Notes under the pieces: model-generated
Databases searched by the model: none
Told to the model about the DNA's origin: nothing
What the model saw: only the letters and a program-made list of their open reading frames with translations
Assembly (NCBI RefSeq): GCF_003334405.1
Contig: NZ_QOWM01000003.1
From: Escherichia coli
GTDB lineage: Bacteria; Pseudomonadota; Gammaproteobacteria; Enterobacterales; Enterobacteriaceae
DNA length: 64,000 nt
Strand: one strand, 5' to 3'
Position numbers and translations under genes: made by a program
Part shown: in pieces, positions 8,666-12,147 of the stretch
How the letters are laid out: every line of letters starts with the position of its first letter
Position numbering within the stretch: the stretch's first letter is position 1

Positions 8666-8709
8666 TCCATTTCACTCCAGACCCTAACTTCAGCTCCTGC
8701 AAAATCGCA

Positions 8710-8725
8710 AGGTAAACGTTTGCCT
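8710..8725. promoter_or_regulatory. PUR-box operator in the purR 5' leader (autoregulation site O1)
   Basis: AGGTAAACGTTTGCCT (revcomp AGGCAAACGTTTACCT) matches the PurR operator consensus aCGCAAACGTTTtCnT, about 45 bp upstream of the purR start. Confidence 0.7.
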
Positions 8726-8963
8726 TTACACACCTTACGCACAACAAAAGTGTTGCGGTACGCCGGAAAAACGACACGGAGCGTCAGGAAGGGGTCAATG
8801 GCCAGTACGCAAATAGTGTAAGCGTGGAATTTTGGCCGATCTTGACGAAAAGGGGAAGTGGTAAAAACACTTATCATTATAAATGACGGGAGATTTTTTC
8901 ATCACAGTGTGTAAAAATGCGTAATATCACTTTTTGTGTGGTAATAAAAAAGGAGAAAACTTG

Positions 8964-9053
8964 ATGAGCACCGACCTTAAATTTTCACTGGTAACAACGA
9001 TTATCGTCCTCGGTTTGATCGTAGCCGTGGGTTTGACTGCCGCGCTGCACTGA
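8964..9053 (+). CDS. ynhF: Small membrane protein YnhF, 29 aa
   Basis: ATG at 8964 preceded by the AGGAGA Shine-Dalgarno; translation MSTDLKFSLVTTIIVLGLIVAVGLTAALH is a single TM helix. Too short for the supplied ORF track. Confidence 0.8.
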   Translation: MSTDLKFSLVTTIIVLGLIVAVGLTAALH

Positions 9054-9218
9054 TTTCCTCTCGAGGGAGCGCGTTCTCCCTCGCATCTCCTTCCTGTTTG
9101 TTAGCAAAATGGCAAAAGTGTTTTCTCTTTTTGTTATTTTCATTTTTTTGTGATTGCTGTCATGCTTTCGCCACTTTAATGAATATCGCGTAATGACGCG
9201 AAGAGGTGGAGATAAGGC

Positions 9219-10388
9219 ATGAAAATTAACTATCCGTTGCTGGCGCTGGCGATTGGCGCGTTTGGTATCGGGACAACGGAGTTCTCGCCAATGGGCTTGT
9301 TGCCCGTCATTGCGCGCGGTGTGGATGTCTCGATTCCCGCTGCCGGAATGTTAATCAGTGCCTATGCAGTTGGCGTAATGGTTGGCGCGCCGCTGATGAC
9401 GCTTCTACTTTCTCATCGTGCCCGCCGCAGTGCGTTGATTTTCCTGATGGCAATTTTCACGCTCGGCAACGTACTTTCCGCCATCGCGCCGGATTATATG
9501 ACCCTGATGCTTTCACGCATTTTGACCAGCCTGAATCACGGAGCATTTTTTGGTTTGGGTTCAGTCGTGGCCGCAAGCGTGGTGCCAAAACATAAACAGG
9601 CCAGCGCAGTTGCCACTATGTTTATGGGGTTAACCCTGGCAAATATCGGTGGCGTGCCGGCGGCGACCTGGTTGGGTGAAACCATCGGCTGGCGGATGTC
9701 ATTTCTGGCAACGGCGGGGCTGGGAGTGATTTCAATGGTAAGTCTGTTCTTCTCATTACCTAAAGGTGGTGCAGGGGCACGACCTGAAGTGAAAAAAGAG
9801 CTGGCGGTATTAATGCGTCCGCAGGTGCTGTCTGCATTGCTGACGACGGTACTGGGAGCTGGTGCAATGTTTACTCTCTACACCTATATCTCTCCGGTAC
9901 TGCAAAGTATTACCCACGCAACACCGGTGTTCGTCACGGCAATGCTGGTGCTGATTGGTGTCGGATTCTCTATCGGTAACTATCTCGGCGGCAAACTGGC
10001 AGATCGTTCAGTTAACGGCACGTTGAAAGGCTTTTTGTTGTTGTTGATGGTGATTATGCTGGCAATCCCGTTCCTGGCCCGCAATGAGTTCGGCGCAGCT
10101 ATTAGCATGGTGGTGTGGGGCGCAGCAACCTTTGCGGTCGTACCGCCGTTACAGATGCGCGTGATGCGTGTCGCCAGTGAAGCGCCAGGTCTGTCTTCAT
10201 CAGTCAATATTGGTGCCTTTAATCTTGGAAATGCGCTGGGAGCAGCTGCTGGTGGTGCGGTAATTTCCGCTGGGCTGGGATACAGCTTTGTGCCGGTGAT
10301 GGGAGCGATTGTCGCGGGACTGGCATTATTGCTGGTGTTTATGTCAGCCAGAAAACAACCTGAAACAGTTTGCGTTGCTAACAGCTAA
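9219..10388 (+). CDS. ydhP: MFS transporter YdhP, 389 aa
   Basis: 12-TM MFS-like ORF; a GAGGTGGAGATAAGGC ribosome-binding region precedes the ATG. Confidence 0.92.
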   Translation: MKINYPLLALAIGAFGIGTTEFSPMGLLPVIARGVDVSIPAAGMLISAYAVGVMVGAPLMTLLLSHRARRSALIFLMAIFTLGNVLSAIAPDYMTLMLSRILTSLNHGAFFGLGSVVAASVVPKHKQASAVATMFMGLTLANIGGVPAATWLGETIGWRMSFLATAGLGVISMVSLFFSLPKGGAGARPEVKKELAVLMRPQVLSALLTTVLGAGAMFTLYTYISPVLQSITHATPVFVTAMLVLIGVGFSIGNYLGGKLADRSVNGTLKGFLLLLMVIMLAIPFLARNEFGAAISMVVWGAATFAVVPPLQMRVMRVASEAPGLSSSVNIGAFNLGNALGAAAGGAVISAGLGYSFVPVMGAIVAGLALLLVFMSARKQPETVCVANS

Positions 10389-10451
10389 TTAAACAAAAAC
10401 GCAGAAGGATAACCTTCTGCGTTACAGTTGCTGACAACGTGCGATTTATCT

Positions 10452-10612
10452 TGCCGGATGCGGTGTTAACGACTCATCCGCGTTGACATGAAAAGACGCG
10501 TTAGGCGTCGTATCATGCAGCGCTTGTCGGATGCGGCGAGTGCCTTATCCGACCTACATCGATGATCCGCGTAGGCCTGATAAGCGTAGCGCTTCAGGCA
10601 ATGCTGCATTTG
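10452..10612. repeat. REP/BIME cluster (about three REP units) between the convergent ydhP and sodB
   Basis: GCCGGATGCGGTG..., GTCGGATGCGGCGAGTGCCTTATCCGACCTAC and GTAGGCCTGATAAGCGTAGCGCTTCAGGC are canonical E. coli REP palindromic units; a ydhP terminator hairpin (CGCAGAAGG-ATAA-CCTTCTGCG) lies just upstream at 10398..10420. Confidence 0.85.
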
Positions 10613-10622
10613 CCATCAGTTA

Positions 10623-11204
10623 TTATGCAGCGAGATTTTTCGCTACGAATTCCCAGTTCACCAGCGCCCAGAAGTGCTCCAGATAGCCAGGACGTGCATT
10701 GCGATAGTCGATGTAATAAGCGTGTTCCCAGACATCAACGGTCAGCAGCGGAGTCGCATCGGTGGTCAGCGGAGTACCCGCGTTAGAGGTTGAAACGATA
10801 GCCAGTTTGCCATCGCTGTTTTTCACCAGCCAGGTCCAGCCAGAACCAAAGTTTTTGATCGCTGCATCAGTAAACTGCGCTTTGAAATCGGCAAAGCTGC
10901 CAAAAGATGCGGCGATAGCTTCAGCGACTTTTCCAGTCGGTTCGCCACCGGCGTTCGGTGCCAGGCAGTTCCAGTAGAAAGTATGGTTCCAGACCTGAGC
11001 TGCGTTGTTGAATACGCCACCTTCAGAGCTGCGAATAATCTCTTCCAGTGATTTACCTTCAAACGCGGTACCTTTAATCAGGTTGTTCAGGTTAGTGACA
11101 TAAGTCTGATGGTGCTTGCCGTAGTGATACTCGATGGTTTCCGCAGAAATGTGCGGTGCCAGAGCATCTTTAGCATATGGTAGTGCAGGTAATTCGAATG
11201 ACAT
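10623..11204 (-). CDS. sodB: Iron superoxide dismutase, 193 aa
   Basis: [36 protein letters not shown]... with the D-x-W-E-H-A-Y-Y motif. Confidence 0.98.
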
Positions 11205-11331
11205 TGCTACTCTCCTTTATTATTAATTTGCATACGTACAATAGCCTTATTGTGCGTATGGATAGGGTAGCAAATTAAAAGGTGAGACAAAAGATGAACT
11301 TACCCTGTTGCCGTAACAACAGGGTAAAGTT

Positions 11332-12147
11332 TTAGCGAAGTGTTTTTGGGGTCATTACCCGACGAGCGCCAACATAGTGGCGCTGCCAGTAGTCTTCACT
11401 GAGAGAAGTGATTTGAATTTCCTGACCTGTGCGCGGTGACTGAATAAATTTGCCGTTGCCGACATACACGCCGACATGATCGGCTGTGCCGCGTCCCTGA
11501 GTACGGAAAAAGACCAGGTCGCCGTTTTTCAGTTCACTACGTTCGATTGGCGCTGCATCACGCAGGTGATACATTTCATTCGCCGTACGCGGAATACGAA
11601 TTTTCACCAAATCTTTATAAGCGTAATAAACCAGGCCGCTGCAATCAAAACCGGTACGCGGTGAGCTGCCACCCCAACGATATGGCTTACCAATTTGCTG
11701 CATCAGTTTATTCATTGCCACTTTCGTAGCTTTTTGCACCTTCGCTTTGTGCGCGTCGGCAAGAGTTCCTGACGCGGCATTTTTGACTTTCACACAATGC
11801 GATTTATAGCCCTTACGTTTGGTACACTTTTCGGTAAAGCTGGCTGAGGCCGTTTTATTGACGGCGTGTTTGCTGCGAGTTTTGGCGTTTTTAGAAGCGG
11901 TAATGGAAGATTTTTTAACGGAAGAAGCGGTTTTGCTTTTGGTCGTACTTTTACTGGCGGCTTTTTTCGCTGGTTTCTGGGTCTTTTTGGTGGTTGCCGT
12001 GCTTTTCTTTTTATCTGCTTTTTTGGTGATATGAGTGGTAGCAGAACTCTCCCTGGCTTGCTTTGAAGCATGGGCCATAGGCGTTAAAGGCAGGGTGGTA
12101 AAAAGTAAAGCACAGAGCGTGATCGAAATACGGTTTATCCGCGCCAC
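11332..12147 (-). CDS. mepH: NlpC/P60 peptidoglycan DD-endopeptidase (MepH/YdhO), 271 aa, with a Lys/Thr/Ser-rich low-complexity region
   Basis: Signal peptide, then the K/T/S-rich segment (KKADKKKSTATTKKTQKPAKKAASKSTTKSK...), then a C-terminal NlpC/P60 domain with catalytic Cys (FDCSGLVYYAY). Confidence 0.92.
   Translation of the reverse strand: MARINRISITLCALLFTTLPLTPMAHASKQARESSATTHITKKADKKKSTATTKKTQKPAKKAASKSTTKSKTASSVKKSSITASKNAKTRSKHAVNKTASASFTEKCTKRKGYKSHCVKVKNAASGTLADAHKAKVQKATKVAMNKLMQQIGKPYRWGGSSPRTGFDCSGLVYYAYKDLVKIRIPRTANEMYHLRDAAPIERSELKNGDLVFFRTQGRGTADHVGVYVGNGKFIQSPRTGQEIQITSLSEDYWQRHYVGARRVMTPKTLR

Follow-up and report, generated by a model that had tools for sequence, protein, structure and literature searches.

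A REP cluster and a probable sodB terminator in the convergent ydhP-sodB gap of Escherichia coli

The DNA between the stop codons of ydhP and sodB in this E. coli genome contained the terminator of sodB together with an atypical BIME, composed of a Y, a Z2-like, a second Y and a Z1 unit. The explanation in which we have considerable confidence is that an intrinsic terminator of sodB lies at the far end of a 228-nt 3′ untranslated region (UTR), and that the REP cluster inside this UTR was inserted in the Escherichia lineage and is dispensable. As non-autonomous repeats, REPs depend for their spread on the REP-associated transposase TnpA(REP), or RAYT. With the terminator credited to sodB, the sodB mRNA acquires a long 3′ UTR filled with REPs, which is of interest mainly for correct annotation.

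Organization of the ydhP-sodB gap

In the window (the whole stretch of 64,000 nucleotides analysed), ydhP on the plus strand and sodB on the minus strand were convergent neighbours, as judged from the list of open reading frames (ORFs) and from the RefSeq names under identical matches. The gap between them measured 234 bp from stop to stop (10389-10622). The features of the region were as follows, with alignment scores, fold energies and z values given for the REP units.

9219-10388 (+): ydhP coding sequence (MFS transporter), stop codon TAA at 10386-10388 (ORF list; RefSeq annotation under identical matches)
10389-10423 (-): intrinsic terminator on the sodB strand, a stem-loop (10423-10398) followed by TTTTTGTTT
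10424-10451 (no strand): spacer between the terminator and the REP cluster, kept in Escherichia and missing in Citrobacter (alignments)
10452-10480 (-): REP unit 1, decayed Y-type; score 42 against the Y consensus, GTAG lost, -7.3 kcal/mol, z = -0.7
10482-10519 (+): REP unit 2, degenerate 37-nt type, Z2-like; score 38, GTAG changed to GTTG, -13.9 kcal/mol, z = -3.3
10525-10557 (-): REP unit 3, Y-type, found as an inverted repeat; score 44, GTAG intact (10557-10554), AA/GC internal mismatch, -16.8 kcal/mol, z = -4.5
10558-10570 (no strand): linker between the tails of units 3 and 4, 13 nt, without IHF consensus
10571-10600 (+): REP unit 4, 30-nt type, Z1; score 56, GTAG intact (10571-10574), 29 of 30 bases as in the consensus, -12.8 kcal/mol, z = -3.3
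10601-10622 (-): spacer from the sodB stop codon to the first REP on the sodB transcript, 22 nt (from the sequence)
10623-11204 (-): sodB coding sequence (Fe superoxide dismutase), stop codon at 10623-10625 (ORF list; RefSeq annotation)

A preliminary description of this DNA had put about 160 bp between the two stop codons. That is the size of the K-12 allele, since sodB ends at 1735959 and ydhP at 1736121 in NC_000913, leaving a 161-bp gap; the gap size and the unit count given earlier stem from K-12 and not from the window. Folded and compared with shuffled sequences, the whole gap was far more stable on either strand, with z = -5.6 for that of sodB and z = -5.8 for that of ydhP, and the earlier statement that REPs explain this non-coding, highly structured DNA held, a known repeat family accounting for the structure.

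The three ORFs within the gap, one of 47 aa on the minus strand (10466-10609) and two on the plus strand, of 51 aa and 74 aa, were rejected as coding sequences: they cross the REP palindromes and are disrupted by indels of 73 bp and 89 bp among strains, neither of which is a multiple of three. A promoter in the gap was also rejected, as one sigma-70-like match (10488-10516, +) was found versus 1.6 expected by chance.

Several elements were observed elsewhere in the window. A tRNA gene occupied its very start (1-74, -; Rfam tRNA, 70.1 bits). The purR-ydhP intergenic region carried a full-length Rfam match to the enterobacterial sRNA STnc550 (8666-9056, +; 396.5 bits), which overlapped the small cydH (ynhF) gene and at which K-12 Term-seq data have a very strong 3′ end (1737422, -). 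The match of the sodB 5′ UTR (11175-11279, -) to Rfam SodB_thermometer scored 31.4 bits versus a gathering score of 98 and is not a member of that family. Between mepH (11332-12147, -) and the sodB start, a terminator-like hairpin of 13 pairs was located at 11299-11328 (-); it is presumably the mepH terminator, placed just upstream of the sodB promoter region.

REP units of the cluster

Four REP-like units, in alternating orientation (-, +, -, +) and separated by linkers of 1, 5 and 13 nt, filled the stretch from 10452 to 10600. Alignment to the REP consensus families, which the preliminary description had proposed as a check, gave a match: in local alignments with three E. coli REP consensus sequences, units 1 to 4 scored 42, 38, 44 and 56, versus best scores of 28 to 34 in ten simulated sequences of 64 kb. 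Table 1 of PMC2817692 served to check the Y and 37-nt (Z2) consensus sequences, and the 30-nt consensus was checked only by its length in PMC8266576, which gives 35 nt for y, 29 nt for z1 and 37 nt for z2, and against the second REP cluster of the window.

The hallmarks of REPs, of which K-12 has about 600 copies genome-wide, are an imperfect palindrome of 20-50 nt, a GTAG tag on its 5′ side and an AA/GC bulge (PMC8266576). The tag, indispensable to the E. coli REP transposase (PMC8266576), was kept by units 3 and 4, whereas unit 2 read GTTG and unit 1 was without it; by this feature units 3 and 4 are full REP members and units 1 and 2 are relics. Imperfect palindromes were found in units 2 to 4, which folded at -12.8 to -16.8 kcal/mol (z = -3.3 to -4.5) in energies computed on RNA of the sodB strand, and the hairpin of unit 1 was no better than those of shuffled sequences (z = -0.7). 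At the AA/GC position, unit 3 had a 2x2 internal loop and unit 4 a two-base bulge.

The cluster was extragenic, lying wholly between two stop codons, and, with at least two REPs in alternating orientation joined by short linkers, it had the make-up of a BIME. Its earlier identification as an ordinary REP/BIME cluster 3′ of sodB was borne out by consensus scores above those of simulation and by the catalogued copy in K-12. The earlier count of about three units is lower than the four that can be recognised, although three is a fair count of the working hairpins.

The only other REP cluster in the 64 kb was located at 54964-55062, between convergent ORFs at 53635-54900 (+) and 55126-56634 (-). 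There, a Y unit close to the consensus was paired with a perfect 30-nt Z1 unit, and the 34-nt linker joining them carried an IHF-like site, ATTCAAAGTGTTG (55011-55023); this is the canonical BIME-1 form.

A terminator beyond the cluster

Terminator scan, inverted repeat search and folding all detected a hairpin at 10398-10423, with 11 perfect pairs and a 4-nt loop (-18.1 kcal/mol, z = -6.6). The scan called it on the minus strand only, as AACGCAGAAGGTTATCCTTCTGCGTT followed by TTTGTTTAAT; read on the ydhP strand, the hairpin is followed by ACAGTTGCTG, without a T-run. In the Term-seq data of Adams et al. 2021 (PMC7815308, supplementary file 1), obtained under three growth conditions, a 3′ end is listed at MG1655 position 1736114 on the plus strand, which is the sodB strand there, in two entries with scores of 23167 and 8132. 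This position corresponded to window 10395 (-), the fifth T after the stem, and its 61-nt context was identical in the window. Its class in PMC7815308 is 'antisense to ydhP'; since it lies on the sodB strand, 155 nt past the sodB stop codon, we infer that it belongs to the sodB transcript. Within the REPs, or nearby on the ydhP strand, no 3′ end was present in these K-12 data.

Because the T-run is on the minus strand and the Term-seq 3′ end was mapped there, the hairpin is best read as the intrinsic terminator of sodB, and its polarity speaks against the earlier assignment to ydhP. The terminator lies beyond the REPs on the sodB strand; therefore, the REPs are inside the sodB 3′ UTR, upstream of the terminator. 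Measured to the mapped end, this UTR is 228 nt long in the window, as against 155 nt in K-12. In K-12 at least, sodB and the cluster share a transcript, the Term-seq data being those of the two-unit K-12 allele and the window carrying the four-unit allele of another strain. A literature search on the sodB 3′ UTR, the sodB terminator and Term-seq with sodB yielded nothing useful.

Alleles among E. coli strains

Alleles were counted over 5,426 complete E. coli genomes, all of which have the locus. REP copy number at this locus among strains, the second comparison that the preliminary description had proposed, was variable, with three main alleles. The four-unit allele, that is, the form in the window, was found in 1,350 of the 5,426 genomes, with ATCC 8739 and E. 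coli B as examples, a two-unit short allele with a 145-bp gap in at least 3,330, and the K-12 junction, also with two units, in 356. Those K-12-junction genomes that were sampled (14 of the 356) were all K-12 laboratory strains; the short allele was found in O157, O111 and ST131 strains, among others. Two segments of the window distinguish the alleles.

10464-10536 (no strand): 73-bp segment missing in K-12, flanked by direct repeats CGGATGCGG of units 1 and 3
10476-10564 (no strand): 89-bp segment missing in the common short allele, flanked by direct repeats beginning ATCCGCGT

The window gap minus the 73 bp was exactly the K-12 gap. Likewise, the rare long allele of strain 1919D3, minus 89 bp between perfect 15-bp repeats (ATCCGCGTTGGCATG), was the short allele, in which both units have lost GTAG. 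Judged from these sequences, all two-unit forms, those of other Escherichia included, could in principle be derived from a four-unit form by one deletion between direct repeats in the REP arms; the changes may also have run in the opposite direction, by gain of units. A recent tandem duplication was rejected as the origin of the four-unit form, as the two 73-bp halves are common only over their first 14 nt. The two-REP form of K-12 is unrepresentative, being an apparent 73-bp deletion, seen in K-12 strains, at a locus that has four units in a quarter of the complete E. coli genomes, and the exact one-step relations between alleles make a clean small example of indels mediated by REP arms.

Compared with the version in 1919D3 and the short allele, unit 4 of the window differed at 5 of 30 positions (10573-10593) and unit 1 at 3 positions, and the DNA between units 1 and 4 had one difference (10486). 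Relative to 1919D3, four of the five changes in unit 4 were toward the REP consensus, restoration of GTAG among them. On this pattern, the differences in unit 4 are more suggestive of gene conversion by a REP copy elsewhere than of point mutation.

About 100 of the 5,426 genomes matched 10300-10720 in two separate places, which implies that more than about 700 bp has been inserted into the gap or close to it. In K99B, KO11FL and ST2350, IS621 (IS110 family; 1,279 bp) was present directly after the GTAG of unit 4 (window 10574/10575), with a 2-bp ambiguity in the insertion point (loci L004, 3276-4554, L020 and L021). The identical 80-bp junction was found in two further genomes, so that IS621 explains only five of the approximately 100 split-match genomes. 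Unlike KO11FL, which we take to be a derivative of E. coli W, the E. coli W assemblies did not have the IS621 junction at unit 4. IS621 targets a specific site in REPs according to Choi et al. 2003, as that work is cited in PMC1525189.

Related species and origin of the cluster

An exact-pattern scan with one genome per species found the hairpin adjoining sodB in 12 species representatives. Six of these, from Citrobacter, had a gap of approximately 45 to 60 bp with the hairpin 8 to 9 nt past the sodB stop codon, and no REP units were detected in their ydhP-sodB gaps. None were detected in the Kluyvera gap, in which the hairpin was kept beside sodB. E. albertii, E. whittamii and a divergent 'E. 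coli' representative had two REP units each, located between the sodB stop codon and the hairpin, and some REP unit was present at this spot across four Escherichia species.

By these comparisons, the terminator is old, and the REPs entered the 3′ UTR later, in the Escherichia lineage. Since that entry, recombination or slippage between REP arms in direct repeat has probably added or removed units.

The Kluyvera loci (L013, L016 and L017) had two hairpins in a gap of about 100 bp, one with its T-run on the sodB strand beside ydhP and the other with its T-run on the ydhP strand beside sodB. With this arrangement, the two convergent 3′ UTRs would overlap.

Possible roles of the cluster

By analogy with other REPs, the likeliest role of the cluster is that of a dispensable repeat adding exonuclease-blocking hairpins to the sodB mRNA. 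Once the terminator hairpin is breached, the three units that still fold stably would be extra internal barriers to 3′-to-5′ exonucleases; as family-level work suggests, they would slow PNPase and RNase II after its removal. The effect on sodB is expected to be small or modest and the cluster to be dispensable for sodB expression; with a strong terminator hairpin downstream, the REPs may be without measurable effect on sodB. A dispensable and dynamic cluster is consistent with a unit number that varies across strains and with the state of the units, two of the four being without GTAG and one without a hairpin.

It is a serious possibility, although one that we would not place first, that the cluster is functionless here, a decaying selfish repeat tolerated because the 3′ UTR is a permissive site. 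The free gain and loss of units among strains would fit this, as would the loss of the GTAG required by the transposase, not only in two of the four units of the window but in both units of the short allele, and the 1.3-kb IS621 insertion tolerated within the cluster in several strains; the presence of some REP unit at the same spot across four Escherichia species speaks against it. Absence of function is compatible with a dispensable cluster in the sodB 3′ UTR, from which it differs solely in effect size.

The hairpin could also be a bidirectional terminator serving both convergent genes, with the REPs as back-up hairpins for ydhP read-through. Its stem is perfectly symmetric and is lengthened by A/T pairs, and in C. 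portucalensis and Citrobacter sp. On2M the tail on the ydhP side is TTATCTTTTTT, so that the ancestral hairpin could work both ways. In Escherichia, however, the T-run on the ydhP side is gone, and K-12 Term-seq has no 3′ end on the ydhP strand there; for the window, this reading is doubtful.

At the level of DNA, the cluster might act mainly as a gyrase site absorbing positive supercoils between the convergent genes. A subset of BIME-2, that is, of Y-Z2 arrays, is enriched in gyrase cleavage sites, mostly in the Y units (PMC6379681), and the window allele has two Y units and a Y-Z2 pair. Yet this single pair, units 1 and 2, is the decayed half of the cluster and is missing in K-12 and most strains, and Citrobacter is without a REP in the same convergent gap; no gyrase data specific to this locus were found in the literature. 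A main role of this kind is therefore unlikely.

IHF binding is a property of BIME-1, through the linker. The preliminary description had extended it to this cluster, but a search of 10389-10622 for the IHF consensus, WATCAANNNNTTR, with 0 or 1 mismatch found no site, in a test of the consensus only, and the linkers of 1, 5 and 13 nt were without it even at one mismatch. The description as a whole, in which ydhP is terminated by the hairpin and the REPs stand apart from it, bound by gyrase and IHF and stabilising the sodB message at its 3′ end, is very unlikely. In its favour, the hairpin begins 10 nt past the ydhP stop codon, its plus-strand fold is just as stable (-18.3 kcal/mol), and published work on the REP family describes binding of gyrase and IHF and a block to exonucleases. 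Against it, the plus-strand tail, ACAGTTGC, has no T-run and was not called by the scan, Term-seq puts the 3′ end on the sodB strand, the gap is without an IHF consensus, and ydhP transcripts of K-12 meet a Rho-dependent termination region within the ORF (1736788, -; PMC7815308).

REP-induced ribosome stalling was also considered and set aside. The first REP starts 22 nt past the sodB stop codon, and the effect, reportedly described by Liang, Rudd and Deutscher (2015) for REPs within about 15 nt of a stop codon, is probably inapplicable here. There is a slight chance that the length of the sodB 3′ UTR, approximately 139, 155 or 228 nt depending on the lineage, sets sodB mRNA half-lives or SodB levels, or that the tail made of REPs and terminator persists as a stable 3′-UTR-derived RNA with a strain-specific body.

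Comparison with known REP systems

REPv128ab is listed for sodB in PMC10100675; thus, the K-12 copy of the cluster is already annotated as REP128, and the feature is an ordinary, known one. REP128 (REPv128a,b) occupies the same locus with the same flanks, and the right part of unit 3, unit 4 and the terminator are identical in K-12 and the window. They differ in that REP128 has two units in a 161-bp gap, whereas the window has four in 234 bp.

The cluster shared features with two classes of BIME. As in BIME-1 (RIB/RIP; Y, a long linker with an IHF site, and Z1), units 3 and 4 are a Y and a Z1 unit placed tail-to-tail, but their linker is 13 nt long and has no IHF consensus, and they do not form a BIME-1. 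As in BIME-2 (tandem Y-Z2 arrays with strong gyrase sites), units 1 and 2 are a Y and a 37-nt unit in alternating orientation. The window, however, has one Y-Z2 pair, which is degenerate (both GTAG tags and one hairpin lost) and is followed by a Y-Z1 pair, and this combination makes the BIME atypical.

The REP-derived RNA naRNA4 (REP325; RF02564) is a head-to-head pair of Y and Z2 hairpins, as is the part of the window that matched its full Rfam model (10485-10554, -; 47.7 bits, E = 1e-6). Membership was rejected, as the score is below the gathering score of 59.5 and there was no match at the gathering threshold; the likeness is one of common REP ancestry. The hairpins in the sodB 3′ UTR resemble the REP hairpins described by Dar and Sorek 2018 (PMC6061677) in the 3′ UTRs of Rho-terminated mRNAs, which stabilise the 3′ ends and are able to halt PNPase and RNase II. 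The two cases differ in the position of the end, since the steady-state 3′ end of sodB in K-12 lies not at a REP but at the hairpin and U-tract downstream of the REPs.
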